Assembly (NCBI GenBank): GCA_040755035.1
Contig: JBFMBU010000115.1
Span: 1 to 57,191, forward strand
Source: Thermodesulfobacteriota bacterium
GTDB taxonomy: Bacteria > Desulfobacterota > RBG-13-43-22
Length of the DNA: 57,191 bases
Direction of reading: 5' to 3'
The position numbers were made by a program, and so were the translations under genes. The notes under the pieces are model-generated. The model was given only the letters and a program-made list of their open reading frames with translations. It ran no database searches and was not told where the DNA came from. Shown piece after piece: positions 2,235 through 52,502 of this stretch (positions within the stretch are counted from its first letter, which is position 1; the number at the start of each line of letters is the position of its first letter).

Positions 2235-4388
2235 TTAGAGGGATTTAGGGGAAAATGCCTGATCCTGGATTTTACGATGCAGGGTTCGCCGGCTGATGCC
2301 CAACAAGCGGGCAGCTTTGGTTTTGTTCCAATGCGTTTGTTCCAGGGCTTCCAATATCTTCGGCAGATCGACCGATACCCCTGTTTGACCTCCCCTTCCG
2401 GAAAGGGGTGCTGGCAGGTTTTGTGTCCTGATTTCGATCGGCAAATGCTCCAGGGCGATAATCCCCCCTCGACAGAGCACAAAGGCATGTTCCAATACAT
2501 GCTCCAATTCCCTTATGTTGCCGGGCCAGGGGTATTCCATAAAGAGTTTAAGGACCTCATTGGAAACCCCTTCGATGTTTTTTTTGAATTGTTGGTTGAA
2601 AACCTGGTTGAAGTAATCAACCAGCAGGGGCAGATCCTCAAGCCGTTGACGAAGGGGCGGCAAGGCGATTTCCATCACTTTCAGCCGATAGTAAAGATCC
2701 AGACGGAACTCTCCTTTCATGACTTTCTCTTTCAGTGCCCTGTTGGTGCAGGCCACCACCCGGACGTCGGCCTTTCGAGTCACCGATTCTCCAACCCTTT
2801 CAAATTCCTTTTCCTGCAGGACCCGGAGTAGTTTCATCTGGATGTAAGGGGAAATATCTCCGATTTCATCCAAAAGGATCGTGCCCCCCTGTGCCGCTTG
2901 AAACCGTCCCTGTTTGTCCCTGATGGCCCCGGTAAAGGCCCCCTTGACGTGACCGAAGAGCTCACTTTCCAACAAGCTCTCACTCAGGGCCGAGCAATTT
3001 ACCGTTACCAAGGGTTTGAAAGCCCGTTGTCCGCTGTAATGCAGGGCCTTGGCCACCATATCTTTGCCCGTTCCGCTTTCACCGGTGATTAAAACGGTGG
3101 TTTCCAGATTGGCCAGGTCTTCCAGGAGCGCATATATTTCCTGCATTTTTTTGCTTCTGCCGATTATTTTATGAAACCGGTGCCTTTCCCTTAACTCCCT
3201 TTCCAAATCCTTGAGCAACGTAATATCCCTGATCACCAGGACGGCCCCCCTGAAATGGCCTTCCGCATCAAGAAGAGGTGAACTGGTCACGCTGACCATT
3301 TGTCTGGGCCGATGGGCATGACCGCATTCGGTCCGATACTCCTTGACCGTAATTTTTTTATTGAGGGTCTGTCTGAGGACTTCCATACAGGATTGCCGGC
3401 AATGATTCATACACCGGGTAAGCTTCCTGCCGGAGATATCCTTTATGGAGACCCCGCAAATGGTCTCCGTGGATTTGTTGACTTCCAGGACCTTTACTTC
3501 CGTGTCTACGGTAATGACCGCATCGTTGACGCTGCCGAAAATGGCGGTCAAGAGACTGCGATGTCCGGCCAGCTCTTTTTCCGCTTCCTTCCGCTGTTGA
3601 ATATCGCTGGTGACCACTCGAAAGCCGGTGATCTCCCCGGTTTTATCCCGCATCAGGGTGATGGAATCCTCGATGAACCGCCTTTTTCCGTCCCGGCGAA
3701 TGATTTCGTAACTGAATTTGGCAGGGGCACCGGTCCGATACACCTTGTTGTAAGCGCGGAAAACGGCTTCGGCCGTTTCCCGGTCCAGATAGTCCCGGTA
3801 GTTCAGGCCGGCACCTGCTTCCACAGAGCCCCCTAAAATTTTTGCGCCCCCTTGGTTGACGAAGGTAATATTCCCTTTCAGATCGACTTCGGCCAGCCCG
3901 TCCTCAATCTGTTCAATCATCTTTCGATACCTGTGCAGAAAAGACCGGTAGGCCCTTTCCACTTCCATAAACTTGTTGATATCGTTCAGATGACCGAAGT
4001 AGGTCACCTTGCCATCCACCAAGGTCCGGCTGCTGTCTGTACGCACCCAGACGGCGGAGCCGTTTTTTCTGATCATTCTAAAGACATGTTCGCTGGGGAT
4101 TTCCAAGTCCTTTTCTTCCGGGAGTTCTTGGATTTCCAGATTATATCGTTCCTGGTCGCTTGGAAAAACCAGGTCTGGAAAAGATTTGCCGATCAGTTCA
4201 TCGGGCTGATCATAACCCAGTATGGAACAGAAATAAGGATTGACATACTGTAGGCGGCCGTCTTGAATAATGTAGAGACCGACATGGGAGTTTTCACAAA
4301 TCGACCGGTAATCCATTTCCAACCCCTGCCGGTTGGAAAGCAAGCCAGGGGTTGAAGCGGCGAACGATTTCTTGTTTTTCGTCTTCAT
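2235..4388 (-). CDS. Sigma54-dependent transcriptional activator with three PAS domains and a Fis-type HTH
   Basis: Three PAS/PAC repeats, GESGTGKD Walker A, ESELFGHVKGAFTGA, LLDEIGD, WPGNIRELE and a C-terminal NKTKAARLLGISRRTLHRK HTH. Confidence 0.95.
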   Translation of the reverse strand: MKTKNKKSFAASTPGLLSNRQGLEMDYRSICENSHVGLYIIQDGRLQYVNPYFCSILGYDQPDELIGKSFPDLVFPSDQERYNLEIQELPEEKDLEIPSEHVFRMIRKNGSAVWVRTDSSRTLVDGKVTYFGHLNDINKFMEVERAYRSFLHRYRKMIEQIEDGLAEVDLKGNITFVNQGGAKILGGSVEAGAGLNYRDYLDRETAEAVFRAYNKVYRTGAPAKFSYEIIRRDGKRRFIEDSITLMRDKTGEITGFRVVTSDIQQRKEAEKELAGHRSLLTAIFGSVNDAVITVDTEVKVLEVNKSTETICGVSIKDISGRKLTRCMNHCRQSCMEVLRQTLNKKITVKEYRTECGHAHRPRQMVSVTSSPLLDAEGHFRGAVLVIRDITLLKDLERELRERHRFHKIIGRSKKMQEIYALLEDLANLETTVLITGESGTGKDMVAKALHYSGQRAFKPLVTVNCSALSESLLESELFGHVKGAFTGAIRDKQGRFQAAQGGTILLDEIGDISPYIQMKLLRVLQEKEFERVGESVTRKADVRVVACTNRALKEKVMKGEFRLDLYYRLKVMEIALPPLRQRLEDLPLLVDYFNQVFNQQFKKNIEGVSNEVLKLFMEYPWPGNIRELEHVLEHAFVLCRGGIIALEHLPIEIRTQNLPAPLSGRGGQTGVSVDLPKILEALEQTHWNKTKAARLLGISRRTLHRKIQDQAFSPKSL

Positions 4389-9763: not shown

Positions 9764-10375
9764 GTGGGCACGACCTTATACCCGCCTCCGCTGGCCCGTC
9801 TGATCGCTTCCCTTTCCCGTCTTCCCGGGCTGGGGGAGAAAACGGCTACCCGGCTGGCTTTGCATATATTAAGGCGTCCCCAGGCTGAAGTAGCCGAACT
9901 GGCCCGCACCCTGACCGACGTCAAGGAAAAGATACGTTCCTGCTCTATTTGTTTCAATCTGACCGAAGAAGATCCCTGTCCCTTTTGCCGAAATCAAGGT
10001 CGGGAATCGGGCCTCCTTTGTGTGGTGGAAGGCCCGGGAGACCTTCTGGCCCTGGAAAAAGCCGGAGGATTCAGGGGGAAATATCATGTCCTGCAGGGCA
10101 CGCTTTCTCCCATCGACGGGGTCGGTCCTCGGGATCTCCGTATCCGGGAATTAATGGAACGGCTGGATCAGGAACCCATCACGGAGGTTGTTCTGGCCGT
10201 CAACCCCACCGCGGAAGGGGAGGCCACCGTCTCTTTTTTACTGGAACAAATCCGAAACAGGAAGCCGGAAATACGGTTGACACGGATCGCCTATGGGATT
10301 CCCATGGGCGGGGATATAAAATATATGGACAACTGGACCATCAAAACGGCTTTGGAAAGCAGGAGGGATGCGTAG
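9764..10375 (+). CDS. recR: Recombination mediator RecR
   Basis: LPGLGEKTATRLA, CSICFNLTEEDPCPFC zinc finger, YHVLQGTLSPIDG, NPTAEGEAT and IAYGIPMGG. Confidence 0.97.
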   Translation: MGTTLYPPPLARLIASLSRLPGLGEKTATRLALHILRRPQAEVAELARTLTDVKEKIRSCSICFNLTEEDPCPFCRNQGRESGLLCVVEGPGDLLALEKAGGFRGKYHVLQGTLSPIDGVGPRDLRIRELMERLDQEPITEVVLAVNPTAEGEATVSFLLEQIRNRKPEIRLTRIAYGIPMGGDIKYMDNWTIKTALESRRDA

Positions 10376-10379
10376 TATC

Positions 10380-12056
10380 ATGACCGCAGGTTTGAAAAAA
10401 GGGTCGGAAATTATAGTCGAGGTTTTGAGGGATGAAAATGTGGATGTCCTTTTCGGATTTCCGGGAGGAGCGGTTATTCCTTTATATGACGCCCTTTACG
10501 GATGTCCTATCCGGCACATCCTCACCCGTCATGAACAGGGGGCGGCCCATGCCGCCGACGGGTACGCCCGGGCCACGGGCAAAGTAGGGGTTTGTATTGC
10601 CACCTCCGGACCCGGCGCAACCAATTTGGTCACCGGCTTAGCCAACGCCTATATGGATTCCGTCCCCTTGGTGGCCTTAACCGGTCAGGTGGCCACTTCC
10701 CTGATCGGTAACGACAGTTTTCAGGAGGCCGATATTTACGGCATCTCCATCCCCGTCACCAAATATAATTATCTGGTTAAAGATATCAATGACCTGGCCC
10801 GAACCTTAAAGGAAGCCTTTTATATCGCCCGGACCGGTCGTCCGGGGCCGGTACTGATCGACCTGCCCAAGGACATCCAGGAAGGGCGGACAAAATACAA
10901 ACCGGTCAAGGAAGTTCAGATCCCCAGTTATCACCCGACGGTCAAGGGGCATCCCAAACAAATCGAAGCCATGCTGCGGGCCTTGAAGGAAGCCGAAAGA
11001 CCGGTAGCCTATGTGGGGGGTGGGGTCATTTCCGCCAATGCCACGGAGGAACTGACCGCTTTTATCCGATCGGCCAATATTCCCATCACCACTACGCTTA
11101 TGGGCAAGGGGAGCTTCCCGGAAGACGATCCGCTTTATTTAGGGATGCTCGGGATGCACGGCACCCGTTATGCCAATTATGCCGTTTTTCACGCAGATTT
11201 GATTCTGGCCCTGGGGGCGCGCTTTGACGACCGGGTAGCCGGAGATGTAAAAAAATTCGCCCCCCAGGCCAAGATCATCCATGTCGACATCGATCCGGCG
11301 GAAATAGGAAAAAGGGTCAATATCGATATCCCTATCGTTGGAGACTTGAAAACCGTATTGGGGCAGATACGTGGAAAAACAAAGGGGGGAGAACGGAAAA
11401 GATGGCTGGAAAGGATCAACCAGTGGAAGGCGGAATACCCTTTAGCCTATCAAAAAGAAGGGGAACTCAAACCCCAATATATTTTGGAATGTATCAATAC
11501 CATCCGGGATCGCGACCTGATCGTGGCCACTGATGTTGGGCAGCATCAGATGTGGGCCGCCCAGTATGTGACCACCCGGAAACCCCGCTCCTTTATCACC
11601 TCCGGCGGTTTGGGGACCATGGGTTATGGTTTTCCGGCAGCCATCGGCGCCCAGGTGGGTTGTCCGGACAAGACCGTGATCCTGGTTTCCGGAGACGGCA
11701 GTTTCCAGATGAATATTCAGGAACTGGCCACGGCCCGGACCTACAATATAGCGGTTAAAATTTGTTTGTTCAATAACGGTTATCTGGGCATGGTCCGTCA
11801 ATGGCAGGAACTGTTTTGCGAAAAGCGCTATTCCCAGACCCATTTTGAGTTCAACCCCGATTTCGTCAAAGTGGCCGAAGGTTACGGCATTCAAGGTCAA
11901 ATCGTTTATAAAACAGAGGAGGTCCTGCCGGCTTTGGAAAAAGCCCTCTCGGTCCCGGAACCCTATTTGCTCGATTTCCGGGTGGCCCCGGAGGAAAACG
12001 TGATTCCCATGGTTCCGGCCGGTAAGGGGATCAGTGAATTTATGGATGTAAATTAA
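10380..12056 (+). CDS. ilvB: Acetolactate synthase large subunit (biosynthetic)
   Basis: FGFPGGAV, RHEQGAAHAADGYAR, TSGPGATN, DVGQHQMW and the GDGSFQMN ThDP motif. The start is 10380 or 10368. Confidence 0.96.
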   Translation: MTAGLKKGSEIIVEVLRDENVDVLFGFPGGAVIPLYDALYGCPIRHILTRHEQGAAHAADGYARATGKVGVCIATSGPGATNLVTGLANAYMDSVPLVALTGQVATSLIGNDSFQEADIYGISIPVTKYNYLVKDINDLARTLKEAFYIARTGRPGPVLIDLPKDIQEGRTKYKPVKEVQIPSYHPTVKGHPKQIEAMLRALKEAERPVAYVGGGVISANATEELTAFIRSANIPITTTLMGKGSFPEDDPLYLGMLGMHGTRYANYAVFHADLILALGARFDDRVAGDVKKFAPQAKIIHVDIDPAEIGKRVNIDIPIVGDLKTVLGQIRGKTKGGERKRWLERINQWKAEYPLAYQKEGELKPQYILECINTIRDRDLIVATDVGQHQMWAAQYVTTRKPRSFITSGGLGTMGYGFPAAIGAQVGCPDKTVILVSGDGSFQMNIQELATARTYNIAVKICLFNNGYLGMVRQWQELFCEKRYSQTHFEFNPDFVKVAEGYGIQGQIVYKTEEVLPALEKALSVPEPYLLDFRVAPEENVIPMVPAGKGISEFMDVN

Positions 12057-15753: not shown

Positions 15754-15829
15754 TCCCCGGTAGCTCAGTCGGTAGAGCGGGTGGCTGTTAACCACTTGGT
15801 CGGCGGTTCGAGTCCGTCCCGGGGAGCCA
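15754..15829 (+). tRNA. tRNA-Asn (GTT)
   Basis: 76-nt cloverleaf: acceptor TCCCCGG/CCGGGGA, D arm TAGCTCAGTCGGTAGAGC, anticodon loop CT-GTT-AA, GGTTCGAGTCC T arm, encoded CCA. Confidence 0.97.
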
Positions 15830-15891: not shown

Positions 15892-16100
15892 GGGGACACT
15901 TCCCATAGTTATTGACATCGCCCTGTAGTTGAGATAGGGATATTGCAGGCCAGGAATAGCACGGGTATGGGTTGTAAATTATCCGCATCATGTTACCCGG
16001 CGAGGGAACAATAAGGAGATGGAACAACTGATTGAGGATTTTGAAAAGTTTGAAATGGAAATCACAGGCCAAGGGGAACAGGAAAAATGGCATGCCCTGG
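15892..16100 (+). pseudogene. Decayed, internally deleted RAYT/Y1-transposase element remnant
   Basis: GGGGACAC end motif, then TTGACA (15912). The frame from 15947 reads (AGG for ATG)-PGIARVWVVNYPHHVTRRGNNKE, resembling the RAYT N-terminus MPRxAR...PHHxTxRGN. No HUH core follows. Confidence 0.65.
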
Positions 16101-47249: not shown

Positions 47250-47293
47250 GGTCGAAAAAGGTCGACATTGCGTCTTTAGGTCGATATGTCGTC
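47250..47293. promoter_or_regulatory. Putative UAS overlapping the activator's 3' end
   Basis: GGTCGA at 47250, 47260 and 47279; repeats GGTCGACATTGCGTC and GGTCGATATGTCGTC. An IHF-like TATCAAATATTTT (minus strand, 47200-47212) lies between the UAS and the promoter. Confidence 0.5.
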
Positions 47294-49855
47294 TTTTTTA
47301 GTACGGATGCGGCGGGAAGGGATGCCCAATTTTTCCATTTTGCTGTAGAGGGTTGAAGGTTTCAGCTTTAGAATTTCAGCGGCGCCGTTGGTCCCTTTAA
47401 TTCGCCAGCCTGTTTTTTCCAGCACGCTCAGGATAAGCTGTTTTTCGTTTTCTTCCAGGCTTGGCAGGCGGGATGAAGCTTCGATGAGCTTGTTTTGCAT
47501 TTCCAAATGCAGAGTCTCCCCCCGGCTGAGGATGACCGCATGCTCGATAACGTTCTTAAGTTCTCTGATATTCCCGGGCCAGTCGTACTGCTGCAACAGG
47601 GTCATAACCTTTTTGGAGACCGATTGAACCTTCCTGCCCATCTGTTTGTTAAAGTCTTTAATAAAAACCTGGACCAGAAGAGGAATATCTTCCGGCCTTT
47701 TCCTCAGGGGCGGTACCTCGATGGGAAATACGTTGAGCCGATAGTACAGGTCTTGGCGGAAATTGCCTTTTTTCTCTTCTTCCGCCAGGTTACGGTTGGT
47801 GGCGGCAATTACCCTGACATCGACTTTTATCGTTTTGGAGCTTCCGAGCCTTTCAAATTCCCCCGACTCCAGAAAATGCAACAACTTGGCCTGAACCTCT
47901 GGCGGCAACTCACCGATCTCATCAAGAAAAAGGGTGGAGCCATCCGCCATCTCAAAGCGGCCGGATTCCCGGGACAGGGCCCCGGTGTAGGCACCCTTTT
48001 CCCGTCCGAACAGTTCGCTTTCAATCAAGGTCGGCGGCAGAGCACCGCAATTGACCCTTACCATCACCCGGTCTCGGCGTTGGCTCTGATTATGAATAAA
48101 ACGGGCGAGCAGTTCCTTGCCGGTACCTGTTTCACCGCTGATGAGGACCGTGCTGTCTGTCCGGGCGACCTGTTCCGCTATGCTGAGGACCTGCTGTATA
48201 GGTGCGCTTTTCCCGACGATCGTCTCCTGGGGAAAGGCGAGCACGATCTCATCCTTTAAATAGACATTTTCTTTCTCAAGTTGTTGTTTAAGATTTTCTA
48301 TTTCCCGGAGTTTGTTTTGCAGTTCCTCTTCCATGAGCTTGCGGAGGGTGATGTCTATGGATACCCCCATCAGGCGGTCAGGAGTTCCCGACTCGTTGAG
48401 GTGAAGGTGACTTTGTGAAACAATCCATCTTATATTGCCATCCCTTCGAATAATGCGGTACTCGGCGTCTCCCTCCTCCTTCGACTCGGCCATCGCTTCA
48501 ACTTTCCGCCGAACCTTCTCCCGGTCATCAGGATGGACGATCTGCAGAAGGCGGTCAAAAATCACCTCCTCATCCGGTGGCAGGTCATACAACTCCCTGG
48601 TTTTCTCGGTTAGCCAGTAGCTTTTATCGTCAAGATTCAAGCTCCAGAGCCCGGCGCCGGCCGAATCCGCGGCCATGCTCAAACGCTGCTCACTTTCCAA
48701 AAGTGAACGTTCGGCTTTGCGGCGCTTCAGGAAATTAAGAAAAAGCGCCAAAACCAGAAAAGTCTCTACAACGATCAAAGTGATTGCACCTACGATGCCC
48801 GAACGGTGCGCTTCCCAGAACGAAGGCAGGCGAAACCGTATTTCAGAGCCGGCCTTGACCGCCCTTTCAGGGATAGCCCAGCGTCTGAGCTCCCTCCAAT
48901 CATAGGCCGAGAGGTAGGCCCCCTCTCCGCCGAAGGGAATGGATCCTGGCGACTGTCCCTGCATTACCCGTATGGCCATAGCCGCCGCCTCTTGGCCATG
49001 CTCCGTAAAGCTCAGCAGGTAACCGCCAACGATGCCATGACCCAGGTAGGTCTCCTGAACGCCGAAAACCGGGACGTTTGAGGCTTTGGCGATTCGTGAA
49101 AGGGCCTCGCGAGGAGAAAATATTTTCCCAGCCCCGTCTTTGAAAATACTTGAATAAAAAACGAGCGTGTCTTTGGGAAGCGAAGAGACCCGTGACAGGG
49201 TTTCTTCCAGGGACAGTTTGGTCAGATCGATCACCTCAATTTTATCGGCATAGAGCGCAAGACCTTTCCGGTATCCTTGTTCGGCGTAAAGGTCGTTTTC
49301 TGATGTCCCTCCCACCAGGGCGACGCGTTTCGTCTGCGGTTTAAGGAGAAGCGCTTCGTCCATCAGTTTGGTGAGTTTCTCTCCCACGATCGTGCCGGTC
49401 ACAAAAGAGCGCGCCGCTAAGCTTTCCAGGTGCTGGGCATATCCCCTGGTGATGGCCGCAGCGATGACCGGGACCTTGGGGAAAAGGGAACGTCTTTCTG
49501 CCAGCAGGAAACTGACGGCCCTTGGATAGACGGCAATAATGGTGTCCATCCCCTTGCCGGAGTACTTACGGCCAAGGAAATCGGATAGGGCGGTGTCGTA
49601 GGCAGGGGTCCCAAACCGGGAGACATCCAGGTATTCAACGAATAATTGGATGTCGAAGTGCCGGCTATCCCGAAGGACTTCCCGGATCCCCTGCTCGGTC
49701 AATTGTTGGCCGGCGTTATCCATCCCCTCGCTGTGAAGGATCAGAACCCTTTTTACTTCTCTCTGCCCTGCGGCAGGCAATGCCTGACAAAGCAGAACCA
49801 ATAGAAGGACCGGGAAGACAAACCCAGAGATCCATTTCATCTCAGTTGCTTTCAT
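47276..49855 (-). CDS. Membrane-anchored sigma54 activator: periplasmic ABC-substrate-binding-like sensor, TM, PAS, FhlA-like AAA+ and HTH
   Basis: Signal peptide, TM GIVGAITLIVVETFLVLALFL, PAS (VHPDDRE), GETGTGKE, ESELFGREKGAYTGA, WPGNIRELKN and GAAEILKLKPSTL. Confidence 0.93.
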   Translation of the reverse strand: MKATEMKWISGFVFPVLLLVLLCQALPAAGQREVKRVLILHSEGMDNAGQQLTEQGIREVLRDSRHFDIQLFVEYLDVSRFGTPAYDTALSDFLGRKYSGKGMDTIIAVYPRAVSFLLAERRSLFPKVPVIAAAITRGYAQHLESLAARSFVTGTIVGEKLTKLMDEALLLKPQTKRVALVGGTSENDLYAEQGYRKGLALYADKIEVIDLTKLSLEETLSRVSSLPKDTLVFYSSIFKDGAGKIFSPREALSRIAKASNVPVFGVQETYLGHGIVGGYLLSFTEHGQEAAAMAIRVMQGQSPGSIPFGGEGAYLSAYDWRELRRWAIPERAVKAGSEIRFRLPSFWEAHRSGIVGAITLIVVETFLVLALFLNFLKRRKAERSLLESEQRLSMAADSAGAGLWSLNLDDKSYWLTEKTRELYDLPPDEEVIFDRLLQIVHPDDREKVRRKVEAMAESKEEGDAEYRIIRRDGNIRWIVSQSHLHLNESGTPDRLMGVSIDITLRKLMEEELQNKLREIENLKQQLEKENVYLKDEIVLAFPQETIVGKSAPIQQVLSIAEQVARTDSTVLISGETGTGKELLARFIHNQSQRRDRVMVRVNCGALPPTLIESELFGREKGAYTGALSRESGRFEMADGSTLFLDEIGELPPEVQAKLLHFLESGEFERLGSSKTIKVDVRVIAATNRNLAEEEKKGNFRQDLYYRLNVFPIEVPPLRKRPEDIPLLVQVFIKDFNKQMGRKVQSVSKKVMTLLQQYDWPGNIRELKNVIEHAVILSRGETLHLEMQNKLIEASSRLPSLEENEKQLILSVLEKTGWRIKGTNGAAEILKLKPSTLYSKMEKLGIPSRRIRTKKDDIST

Positions 49856-49970
49856 TGTTGTGAGAGACAGGCTTCCAGAATCTCAAAACCCTTTTTTTAT
49901 TTTCTTTTTCAACCAAACTTTTATATTAATCGATAACGGACCATTCAGCAACCCTAATGTAGTAGGGAAT

Positions 49971-51043
49971 GGGGACGCTGGTACAAAAACAACTTGACAA
50001 AAGGGGAGAGATGTAAGAATAAAAGCAAATGCCAAGACAAGCCAGATTAGACGCCCCCGGGACCTTACATCACATCATGGGTCGAGGGATCGAGGGTGGA
50101 AATATTTTCCGAAACCAGCGAGACCGGAGAGATTTTGTAGAACGACTGGCCGCTCTTTGTAGCGTTGGAAGTATCGAGGTCTATGCATGGGCTTTGATGC
50201 CCAACCATTTTCATTTATTGGCTCGAACAAAGGGGCGCTCCCTCTCTGATAATATGCGGAAACTCCTAACTGGGTATGTGGTAAACTTTAATAAACGGCA
50301 CAAAAGGATTGGACATCTTTTCCAAAATCGATATAGGTCTATTGTCTGTGAAGATGACCCTTATCTGTTAGAGTTGACTCGATATATCCATCTTAACCCC
50401 TTGAGGGCCAAATTGGTAAAAAACCTTGAAGAGCTACGAGACTATCCGTGGTCTGGACATTTATATCTTATGAAAAACGGGGTTGATGACTGGCAGGATA
50501 CCGAGGCCGTTTTAACCTATTTTAGCCGTGACAGAAAAAAAGCCGTAAAAAAATATGAATCCTTTCTTGCAGATGGGGTAGCCAGAGGAAAAAGACCGGA
50601 ATTAACTGGAGGAGGACTGGTCAGAAGTATGGGGGGATGGTTTGAAGTAATCTCCCAAAGGCATAAAGGGGAAGGGACGTTAGGGGATCAGAGGGTCCTA
50701 GGGAGTGGGGAGTACATACAAATCCTTTATTCGGAAGCCGATCGAAAACAAAAGGAAACGATGCGCCTCTTATCTCGGAGAGTGAATCTGGATAAGCTTT
50801 CAAAGCAGTTGTGTGTGAGAGAAGGGGTGCGGGAGGAGGAGTTGCTAAATGGAAAAAGAAGGCCGAAAGTGGTCAAAGTCCGAAAACTGTTTTGCCAACT
50901 GGCCGTAAATAGAATGAGTTATTGCGGGGCTGAGGTGGCCCGATTCTTGGGTATAAGCACCTCGGCTACTAACCGGATGGCAGCGTCCAGGGAATTGCCT
51001 GATTTTGAGGAAATTAGTAAGTTGTTTTAGTACCAGCGTCCCC
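49971..51043 (+). mobile_element. Y1 (HUH) transposase element bounded by 25-bp inverted repeats
   Basis: Left GGGGACGCTGGTACAAAAACAACTT (49971-49995); the reverse complement of 51019-51043 is GGGGACGCTGGTACTAAAACAACTT, a 24/25 match. Confidence 0.75.
50029..51030 (+). CDS. RAYT/IS200-like Y1 tyrosine transposase with C-terminal DnaA-C-like HTH
   Basis: MPRQAR, HHIMGRG, LMPNHFHLL (HUH), GHLFQNRY, RYIHLNP (catalytic Tyr), YPWS and C-terminal GAEVARFLGIS. The DNA is more A-rich than its neighbours. Confidence 0.92.
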   Translation: MPRQARLDAPGTLHHIMGRGIEGGNIFRNQRDRRDFVERLAALCSVGSIEVYAWALMPNHFHLLARTKGRSLSDNMRKLLTGYVVNFNKRHKRIGHLFQNRYRSIVCEDDPYLLELTRYIHLNPLRAKLVKNLEELRDYPWSGHLYLMKNGVDDWQDTEAVLTYFSRDRKKAVKKYESFLADGVARGKRPELTGGGLVRSMGGWFEVISQRHKGEGTLGDQRVLGSGEYIQILYSEADRKQKETMRLLSRRVNLDKLSKQLCVREGVREEELLNGKRRPKVVKVRKLFCQLAVNRMSYCGAEVARFLGISTSATNRMAASRELPDFEEISKLF

Positions 51044-51094
51044 TACTTCTGACGCCTTTGTGTTGGGCTTACCAGATATCGGAAAGGAAAAAAT

Positions 51095-51940
51095 ATGCAT
51101 ATCGGAGTTTGCCTGAGCGGAATCGACCATGACCGTTACACCAGGAGCCAGGTGAGGGAGAAGGCCCTGGAGTTGAGCCGACGGTTTCATCTGGACAGCG
51201 TCGAAATGGTTATCGAAGGGATCGGCCGGCGTTTTGCCCCTTATCCCTGGGAATGGCAGGAGGAGGAATTCAGGGAAGTGAAGGCCTTTTTAAGTCAGTT
51301 TTCCCACTCGGGGGTTCACCTGCCCTTCTTCGGGATGAATGTGATCTGTGTCAATGAAAGGGTCCGGGAGGAGGCTATGGATCAAATGCGCCTGGCCATA
51401 GAGGTAGCCAAACGGTTGGAGGTGGATTATGCCGTGGTTCACGCCACCGGGACGACGGAGGGTCTGATGACCGACCGGGAGCCTCAGAGGCAGTACAAGG
51501 CCTTTACCCGCATGCTGGAATGGTGTAAAGACAGCCAGCTGGTCCTCTCTATTGAAAACGCCCAAAATCTCCATCGAATCGAAGACTGTGCGGCTATGGT
51601 TCGCCGTCTAAAAAACGAAGACGGCTTTCCTGCGGCTATGACCTTCGATACCGGCCATGCCAATCATCCCAAAGACGGAAAAAGCATCCCCTTCAAACCC
51701 TTTGGGACTATTTCTGGTGCTCTGGAGCATTGTTTTGATATCATAAACAATATTCACTTACACAACAATGACGGAACTGCCGATCAGCACCGGGGCCTTT
51801 GGGACGGATCTGCGGATTTAAAGGAGTGTATCGGCCGCTTGGTGGACCTCGGTTTTCAGGGGTCGATCTCCCTGGAGGTAAGGCCTCAACCCATGGAACT
51901 GGACCGGGAAATCGAGACCTTGCTGGAGTGGGTGGGGTAG
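51095..51940 (+). CDS. Sugar phosphate isomerase/epimerase (AP endonuclease 2-type TIM barrel)
   Basis: VHLPF, SIEN, TFDTGHA, HLHNNDGTADQH and ISLE metal ligands. Confidence 0.88.
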   Translation: MHIGVCLSGIDHDRYTRSQVREKALELSRRFHLDSVEMVIEGIGRRFAPYPWEWQEEEFREVKAFLSQFSHSGVHLPFFGMNVICVNERVREEAMDQMRLAIEVAKRLEVDYAVVHATGTTEGLMTDREPQRQYKAFTRMLEWCKDSQLVLSIENAQNLHRIEDCAAMVRRLKNEDGFPAAMTFDTGHANHPKDGKSIPFKPFGTISGALEHCFDIINNIHLHNNDGTADQHRGLWDGSADLKECIGRLVDLGFQGSISLEVRPQPMELDREIETLLEWVG

Positions 51941-51956
51941 GGGGGTGTTCGAGCCT

Positions 51957-52502
51957 TTATTCTTTTTCCAAAAGGTAGAGTATAAGAAAAGTTAAAGGAA
52001 TTTCCCGAATCCTGGAAAAACCGACCGTTTCAGCCAGGTGATGGAGTTGCCCGGAGGGGATGCGGTGGGAGAGGGGAGGGCCATAGCCTCCTTCCTTATA
52101 GGGCCATTCCAAGACCGCTATCCGTTTAAGGCAAACCCGGGCTGATTCCTGCAGTGTGGAAAGATGACGGTCCGATTCATGGAGGACCAGTCCCAAAAAG
52201 ACCAGGTCGAAGGTATGATCCGCAAAGGGCAGTTTTTCTGAAGAGGCCAATTGAAAAGCAGCTCCGGGGACATATTTCCTGGCAGCCTCCAGCATCGGTT
52301 CCTGGATATCCACGCCGGTCACCTTAAGACCTCGACCGGCAAAACCCTCGGCAAAAATGCCGCTGCCGGTCCCGACATCGAGAACCGCATGAGCCGTTAT
52401 CCCTTGCAGACAAAGATCGACGACTTTTTCCGTTTCCAGAAAGGCCAGCCGGGCAGGGTCGCGAAGTTTTTCTATTTTTCGGTATATTTTATCGTCGGTC
52501 AT
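51957..52502 (-). CDS. Class I SAM-dependent methyltransferase
   Basis: VLDVGTGSG, GVD, LPFADHTFDLV, LHE and GPPLSHR. Confidence 0.9.
   Translation of the reverse strand: MTDDKIYRKIEKLRDPARLAFLETEKVVDLCLQGITAHAVLDVGTGSGIFAEGFAGRGLKVTGVDIQEPMLEAARKYVPGAAFQLASSEKLPFADHTFDLVFLGLVLHESDRHLSTLQESARVCLKRIAVLEWPYKEGGYGPPLSHRIPSGQLHHLAETVGFSRIREIPLTFLILYLLEKE

Follow-up and report, generated by a model that had tools for sequence, protein, structure and literature searches.

RAYT-like genes that are flanked, in many species, by long terminal inverted repeats instead of REPs were described by Di Nocera, De Gregorio and Rocco in 2013 (BMC Genomics 14:522, PMC3733652), who named the units TIRtrons and their enzymes TIRYTs. 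According to that account, a tip motif, GGGGWSAS, is common to 'some' of the repeats and is thus typical but not obligatory; several TIRYT genes can occur in one genome, each with different repeats; and the repeats, which also occur singly, in dimers and in clusters, lie at roughly fixed distances from the gene and sometimes overlap it. Binding and cleavage assays were proposed there, not performed. Quentin et al. (2018; PMC6006769) placed 20 of 26 TIRYTs in TnpA-Y1 subclass 2.1, all 20 of them with a Bac_DnaA_C, HTH_23 or HTH_28 domain, a tail that is described for subgroup 2.1.2 and is Bac_DnaA_C-like there. These authors reported no REP-like structures near subclass 2.1 genes, doubted that the tail reads the repeats, since GGGG[AT][CG]A[CG] is unlike a DnaA box, and treated the subclass as the equivalent of Group 1 among the RAYTs of Bertels et al. 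(2017; PMC5581495). In the latter work, RAYT groups overall resemble housekeeping genes, with ~1.3-1.8 copies per replicon, and Groups 1 and 6 come closest to insertion sequences. Here we analyse a window of 57,191 nt, contig JBFMBU010000115.1 (C115) of a Thermodesulfobacteriota draft genome (assembly GCA_040755035.1), in which positions 49971-51043 very probably constitute an intact TIRtron of 1,073 bp, a compact mobile or formerly mobile unit. That confidence covers its identity as a TIRtron, with the mechanism lying outside it.

The element consists of two 25-nt arms that match at 24 of 25 positions, lie 1,023 nt apart and tightly enclose a single open reading frame, the stop codon of which falls inside the right arm (Table 1). 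Scored as matches minus twice the mismatches, with a threshold of 15, the pair reaches 22, whereas the same flank search on 1,000 segments of 1 kb, drawn at random from the host genome, gave a best score of 15, attained by one segment. There is no target duplication at this copy (the junctions read GGGAAT/GGGG on the left and CCCC/TACTTC on the right), and neither end folds on itself as single-stranded DNA (z from -0.36 to -1.14 over the four strands). An earlier note on this DNA, made from the sequence alone, had recognized the enclosing repeats, the stop codon within the right repeat, the missing duplication and the missing hairpins, and all of these observations hold. Its proposal of an undescribed element class does not, because the ends match an already catalogued family, an outcome that the note itself had named as grounds for giving up the proposal: the arrangement is the one named TIRtron/TIRYT in PMC3733652 and subclass 2.1 in PMC6006769. 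The window element thus belongs to a kind already described and is not a new class.

Likeness to the published units extends to the RAYT-like gene, the long inverted repeats with a G-rich tip, the spacing between repeat and gene, the presence in one genome of multiple units with private ends, and the occurrence of repeats alone, in dimers and in clusters. Two differences from that description can be listed: the tip of the window element, GGGGACGC, agrees with the published motif at 7/8 positions, whereas the GGGGTCAR tips of a sister subfamily in the same genome agree at 8/8, and the host genome, with at least 13 units, exceeds the examples quoted in the text of PMC3733652. With subclass 2.1, and specifically 2.1.2, the window element shares a protein of ~330 aa, the Y---NP signature, a C-terminal Bac_DnaA_C-like helix-turn-helix, the lack of nearby REP-like hairpins and the low identity between copies within a genome. 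The protein therefore appears to be of the TnpA-Y1 subclass 2.1 type, an assignment made by features and not by the clusters or profiles of the PMC6006769 authors. Where our reading departs from theirs is that we propose the variable inner part of the repeat, often two 8-bp boxes, as the target of the tail in place of the tip.

Profile and structure comparisons agree on the nature of the enzyme, which the earlier note had correctly taken for a Y1/HUH, RAYT-like protein with a DnaA-C-like helix-turn-helix. Residues 24-121 match Pfam Y1_Tnp (E 8.9e-9; 36 bits against a cut-off of 23); the single sequence also matches Bac_DnaA_C weakly and below the cut-off (E 0.0064). The closest NCBIfam model is that of the REP-associated tyrosine transposase, matched over residues 5-142 only and with 65.5 bits, short of its cut-off of 80. 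In an alignment of 54 sequences the HUH residues (N59, H60 and H62) and those of the Y---NP motif (Y119, N123 and P124; YIHLNP at 119-124) are invariant, and the middle linker is conserved as well (GGGLxRSxGGW and DxRxLG). Compared with PDB sequences, the profile of these 54 sequences matches DnaA domain IV at residues ~245-330 (2hcb/1l8q, E ~5e-7; 1j1v, a DnaA-box complex, E 2.7e-5) and TnpA_REP (4er8, E 0.0021). An AlphaFold model of the 333-aa protein (predicted local distance difference test 84.3; predicted template modelling (TM) score 0.72) has as its best Foldseek match in the PDB TnpA_REP 4er8_A (E 3e-6, target TM-score 0.67), followed by the ISDra2, IS200 and IS608 transposases, and its tail superposes on DnaA domain IV of 1j1v_A with a target TM-score of 0.69 and a root-mean-square deviation of 3.3 Å over 90 columns. 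Judging from these predictions, the protein combines a Y1/HUH core most like E. coli TnpA_REP with a DnaA-domain-IV-like helix-turn-helix, and its predicted catalytic motifs are intact in the window copy.

The same design recurs across the family, as the earlier note had anticipated at family level, and the inspection of homologue flanks that it had suggested gave a positive outcome. Among 80 homologue loci, taken from one genome per species, 63 offered at least 60 nt on both sides, and 47 of these 63, all from other genomes, are flanked by an inverted repeat with a score of at least 15; the outer end reads GGGAC or GGGTC in 45 of the 47, and several of the 16 loci below threshold have shorter GGGGACG-led pairs with scores of 11-14. 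The units are narrowly sized (tip-to-tip median 1,091, interquartile range 1,072-1,100, range 937-1,306, n=51), with the tip A lying a median of 55 nt (mode 54) from the ATG and the right tip a median of 19 nt after the stop codon (53 elements); in the tip logo of these 53 elements the GGAC columns are fixed by the anchoring. A typical arm consists of G(3-4)ACG, about three further bases and then two tandem sub-repeats. A 7-nt tandem sub-repeat matching at 6/7 or better is present in 62.7% of 102 arms but in 10.6% of 293 flanking windows, and in 19% of composition shuffles; its period is 8 in 46/64 arm cases against 2/31 in flanking windows. These counts are descriptive, because neither the two arms of an element nor related elements can be treated as independent. 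At least 7,993 relatives (E <= 0.001) populate the protein collection, most of them labelled 'putative transposase' or 'RayT'. Spread by plasmids finds no support, given that 25 of 72,556 plasmid records contain a relative, all partial and none covering 80% of the protein. Contigs of ~1.03-1.4 kb among the relatives were considered as repeat-bounded assembly breaks and set aside, since contigs in that collection are mostly ~1 kb anyway.

Two further sequence features to which the earlier note had drawn attention do not carry over to the family. GTAG is indeed present near both outer edges of the window element, but this is a coincidence: it directly abuts the G-run in 2/51 left and 1/51 right family arms and never in both, so that we reject it as a REP-type tag. 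The palindrome that would form around a GTAC core on joining the outer arms is automatic for any inverted repeat, and the nearest relatives read GGTTC or GGTGC at this place.

Much of the evidence comes from the host genome itself, a 4.6-Mb draft of 318 contigs with 34 translated matches to the protein, of which 18 places were examined. A flanking inverted repeat scoring at least 15 was found at 12 of the 18, and C254 scores 13, giving at least 13 TIRtron units in two subfamilies. Group A (C115, the window copy, with C30, C298, C156, C22, C171, C254 and C282) has proteins starting MPRQARLD and repeats led by GGG(G)ACG; Group B (C59, C80, C258 and two on C38) has proteins starting MSRPLRI and repeats led by GGGGTCAR, its tips agreeing with GGGGWSAS at 8/8 positions (C59, C80, C38 and C258). 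Where a repeat pair is missing, the match is a fragment at a contig end or a short relic (C200, C107, C139, C147 and C125). Paralogues of the window protein are 43-55% identical to it at the protein level, and the inner repeat sequence differs from copy to copy while arms within a pair are 84-96% alike; diverged copies each keep their own matched repeat pair.

What moves in this family is most directly visible in Group B. The C80 and C258 copies are ~98-100% identical over the unit, and the two C38 copies (C38a and C38b) ~95%; in both pairs identity falls to background (0.38-0.57) 2-8 nt beyond the tips, the flanks are unrelated and no target duplication is present. The repeat-bounded unit is what duplicates. 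For the window copy, which may itself be or have been mobile, the evidence is indirect. Its closest relatives, in the same genus, are G003 contig 20 (74%) and G001 contig 151 (68%); both match tip to tip only, the match covering 49968-51045 of the window, and the gene downstream of the window element has its G003 orthologue on a different contig. The G003 arms are identical to those of the window element at 25/25 positions, the A/T difference between left and right included, and the ends are far better conserved than the gene. The G003 element (contig 20, L051 1562-2562) has a frame break near residue 275-287, which puts the helix-turn-helix tail out of frame while the ends are perfectly kept.

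Repeats also exist alone and as gene-less miniature doublets. The earlier note had recommended a genome scan for solo or paired repeats, which located ~32 sites of the GGGACGTTGTTCAYTT type, against 0-1 for reversed controls, and 9 of the window's type, against 3. On C260, a Group B repeat (GGGGTCAAATCTTAAATAATGACA) and its inverted copy form a 73-bp repeat-loop-repeat doublet, present at 10188-10260 and again at 10605-10677, the two copies lying within a 417-bp direct repeat; this doublet is a miniature of a TIRtron, similar to a REPIN or a miniature inverted-repeat transposable element. Repeat units of ~105 and ~250 nt occur on C41 and C281. One end can also be tandemly duplicated together with adjacent sequence, as on C275 (9600-9750, a 74-nt unit present twice) and C41 (340-830, units of 28 and ~60 nt), and C171 has an extra left end with an N-terminal gene fragment (1866-2229). 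Duplications of this one-ended kind recur and have the look of by-products that arise when ends are processed.

The left repeat also overlaps a -35-like box. This box, TTGACA, shares its first two bases with the inner end of the left arm and starts 35 nt before the ATG, as read in the earlier note, which had also remarked on the lack of a close Shine-Dalgarno site; none is present near the ATG, the sole purine-rich run, GGGGAGAG (50003-50010), lying 19-26 nt upstream, too far away. A logo of 29 aligned family upstream regions shows TT(G/T)AC at -35 to -31 (T at -35 and at -34 in 24/29 each; A at -32 and C at -31 in 14/29 each) and a TGnTA-like box at -15 to -11 (G at -14 in 17/29, T at -12 in 18/29, A at -11 in 21/29). 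A -10 box ending at -7 would set the start of transcription at about the ATG, so that this geometry implies a leaderless message; such a reading, drawn solely from the family logo, agrees with the lack of a Shine-Dalgarno site.

Taken together, three observations are added here to the published description: in most family repeats, a tip followed by two 8-bp boxes; a promoter geometry that implies a leaderless message; and two pairs of Group B duplicates whose identity ends 2-8 nt outside the tips. Word searches of the main texts of PMC3733652 and PMC6006769 did not find the 8-bp boxes or the promoter geometry.

Other mobile systems resemble the window element in part. With the REPtron of E. 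coli (TnpA_REP, 4er8) it shares the catalytic-domain structure, the closest NCBIfam model and a gene between inverted repeat copies, but the window repeats are not hairpins, GTAG is not conserved and the protein has double the length and a helix-turn-helix tail. The GTAG-tagged, high-copy REP hairpins of a REPtron are thus missing, with no end hairpins and ~9 sites of the window's repeat type, and the bit score stays below the NCBIfam equivalog cut-off. IS200/IS605 elements (IS608 and ISDra2) share the HUH/Y1 fold, a Pfam Y1_Tnp match above cut-off, the lack of target duplication and unit boundaries that apparently lie a few bases outside the recognized end structures. Their ends, by contrast, are subterminal hairpins on one strand and their TnpA of ~130-150 aa lacks a helix-turn-helix, whereas the window element has no end hairpins and a protein of 333 aa with two further domains. 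REPINs, paired inverted REPs mobilized in trans by a RAYT, are similar in that two inverted copies can form one long single-stranded hairpin, and the C260 doublets have precisely this form; in the window element, however, the 'loop' would be a gene of 1 kb, and neither arm is itself palindromic. A classical DDE insertion sequence (RNase-H fold with target duplication) does not describe the unit, because HUH is the sole transposase fold and neither the window copy nor the recent duplicates show a duplication.

As a mechanism we tentatively propose the pairing of single-stranded ends, binding by the tail and cutting and rejoining outside the foot of the stem, a candidate that in our estimate stops a little short of probable. 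Once the region is exposed as a single strand, as could happen at a replication fork, its two repeats would anneal into a stem closed by a GGGG:CCCC foot. The helix-turn-helix would bind the element-specific inner part of the stem, which in most relatives consists of the two tandem 8-bp boxes, and the HUH/Tyr domain would cut the single-stranded DNA on either side, a few bases beyond the foot, and rejoin the flanks, releasing a circle that could reinsert without target duplication. The cut-and-rejoin step is modelled on IS608 and TnpA_REP, which act on hairpins. Binding at the left repeat would overlap the -35 box and could thus cause autorepression of the leaderless promoter. Such a stem is in keeping with a unit that is compact and narrow in its size range, and with the naturally occurring hairpin doublets. 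Single-strand end pairing, with the helix-turn-helix binding the repeats and regulating its own gene, as the earlier note had proposed, is plausible; in essence it would apply REPIN logic to a gene-bearing unit. A larger claim, namely that TIRtrons form a functioning class of single-strand transposons whose mechanism is as yet undescribed for any HUH element (a panhandle, a helix-turn-helix reading two 8-bp boxes, Y1 cutting outside the foot, self-shut-off and doublet passengers), strikes us as possible but rather doubtful.

Several results weigh against this account. The arms of the window element lack clear 8-bp tandem boxes (4/7 and 5/7), and its tip departs from GGGGWSAS by a G for A at position 7. 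In partial Mantel tests the repeats covary with the tail given the core (r 0.24, p 0.0005) only slightly more strongly than with the core given the tail (0.14, p 0.011), both values being inflated by relatedness of the rows, so that covariation does not single out the helix-turn-helix as the repeat reader. No near-identical twin of the window copy was found in its own genome, where the nearest paralogue is 55% identical at the protein level. The empty sites that the earlier note had suggested looking for were likewise not found when the DNA from 48800 to 52000 was searched in 40 relatives: in G011, G012 and G008 the orthologues of the downstream gene stand next to other genes and are not accompanied by an element, and there is no clean empty site because the upstream gene is not conserved. 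A strict sigma-70 promoter scan of 49800-51200 returned 0 sites, and the window copy reads GAATAA at -12 to -7. Finally, the literature searched yielded no TIRYT that had been tested biochemically or genetically, which leaves every mechanistic step inferred.

Mobility without end pairing is the rival that survives best, although we hold it to be unlikely: the helix-turn-helix would bind each repeat as duplex and the HUH domain would nick opposite strands, because the repeats are inverted, with either excision of the double strand or a rolling-circle-like copy as the outcome. The arm-to-arm match is explained equally well if a single protein binds each end as duplex; moreover, the tail is homologous to DnaA domain IV, a binder of duplex DNA, inverted non-palindromic ends are typical of duplex-binding transposases, and the one-ended tandem duplications on C171, C275 and C41 resemble products of rolling-circle read-through. 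Set against this, all characterized Y1 enzymes of this fold use single-stranded DNA, 4er8 being bound to a hairpin, and the 73-bp doublets are a predicted natural single-strand hairpin substrate. The tight size of ~1.09 kb would also make sense if both ends had to be single-stranded simultaneously, a link that we presume from what is known of IS608.

Under a second and decidedly unlikely alternative, the gene is domesticated and immobile, its enzyme serving the host or maintaining dispersed repeats while the repeats act as binding or regulatory sites. The window copy is single, its paralogues are old, its left repeat overlaps the -35 box and relatives on plasmids are rare and partial, all of which would suit such a gene, as would the published figures for the housekeeping-like RAYT groups, Group 1 having few near-identical duplicates (6.3%) and few plasmid copies (1.2%) (PMC5581495). 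Yet a regulatory site alone needs no second copy past the stop codon, let alone one kept at 25/25 in G003; near-identical whole units stand at unrelated sites in the same genome, alongside gene-less doublets and solo repeats; the elements of G003 and G001 have different contexts; and the same study ranks Groups 1 and 6 as the most insertion-sequence-like RAYTs. A chance inverted repeat round an ordinary gene, or an assembly artefact, has nothing in its favour beyond the draft state of the genome and is negligible in view of the random-segment control and of the recurrence of the layout elsewhere in the genome and at the 47 loci from other assemblies.

Table 1. Coordinates, in the window, of the TIRtron, its neighbours and a putative relic.
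Feature	Position	Strand	Remarks
tRNA-Asn	15754..15829		followed by a terminator-like hairpin
Putative relic of a different family member	15892..16015	+	tip GGGGACAC, TTGACA and ~22 N-terminal codons
Upstream neighbour	47276..49855	-	859 aa; putative sigma-54-type activator with periplasmic-binding-like N-terminus and PAS region (by eye)
Left (promoter-proximal) terminal inverted repeat	49971..49995	+	GGGGACGCTGGTACAAAAACAACTT; G-rich tip outward; 24/25 against right arm
TTGACA, -35-like box	49994..49999	+	straddles inner edge of left repeat; -35 to -30 from ATG
TIRYT gene	50029..51030	+	333 aa; predicted Y1/HUH core, conserved linker and C-terminal DnaA-domain-IV-like helix-turn-helix
HUH motif, His60-Phe61-His62	50206..50214	+	N59, H60 and H62 invariant in the 54-sequence alignment
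Candidate catalytic Tyr119 in YIHLNP	50383..50385	+	Y119, N123 and P124 invariant; class-2 signature Y---NP (PMC6006769)
Predicted C-terminal DNA-binding domain	50761..51018	+	residues ~245-330; homologous to DnaA domain IV
Right terminal inverted repeat	51019..51043	-	includes stop codon TAG, 51028-51030
Downstream neighbour	51095..51940	+	281 aa; 67-72% protein identity in relatives

A site at 15892 in the same window had been put forward in the earlier note as a decayed relative, which is borne out in part. It has a tip, the TTGACA box and, starting 51 nt after the tip as is usual in the family, a peptide, PGIARVWVVNYPHHVTRRGNN, that aligns, though weakly (hhalign E 0.0056, probability 6.5%), with family residues 2-23; no second arm was found within the window. 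The site starts 63 nt after tRNA-Asn, beyond the terminator-like hairpin of that gene, and is plausibly a relic of another subfamily, that is, of a second TIRtron type.

Traces of the window's repeat type were noted in two further places. In G008, contig 6 (L055) holds an orthologue of the gene downstream of the window element; ~1.3 kb upstream of it lies a solo repeat (3613-3637, 2 mismatches) and ~130 nt upstream of it an 11-nt inner-repeat fragment, AAGTTGTTTTA (~2440-2455), with a metallo-beta-lactamase-fold-like open reading frame between the two; these traces may mark an old element at the same neighbourhood, or be due to chance. On C64 (L049) of the host genome, a second inverted pair of the window's repeat type (939-963 and 3390-3414, one difference per arm) spans 2.46 kb without a transposase, with contents all on one strand: a gene for an ERCC4 plus helix-hairpin-helix nuclease (Pfam E 2.5e-23), two small open reading frames, a truncated PIN toxin and an antitoxin-like stub. 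Mobilization of this cargo by the pair was considered but is not supported, as the inner genes occur in G011, G006, G009 and G008 without such repeats within ~1.5 kb, and each arm may instead be a solo repeat in its own right. At 1054-1202 in the same region lies a ~140-bp repeat that is not related to the TIRtron ends; it is dispersed, with numerous copies in the host genome and in relatives of the same family (G010 contig 16, for example, has four).

As a member of its family the element is unremarkable, and the family is a very common one, named since 2013 and never taken to the bench in the literature searched. Its host genome offers a rich natural test bed, with at least 13 units in two subfamilies, private ends, recent duplicates, miniature doublets and end duplications. 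The tip with its two 8-bp boxes, the fixed promoter geometry and the boundaries just outside the tips translate into concrete substrates and predictions for biochemistry, and the boxes give reason to revisit the doubt published in PMC6006769 that the DnaA-like tail reads the repeats. If the proposed mechanism is true, a TIRtron would be a panhandle with the gene as its loop, the 8-bp boxes would give co-resident elements private ends, and the gene-less repeat doublets would be REPIN-like passengers of TIRtrons.

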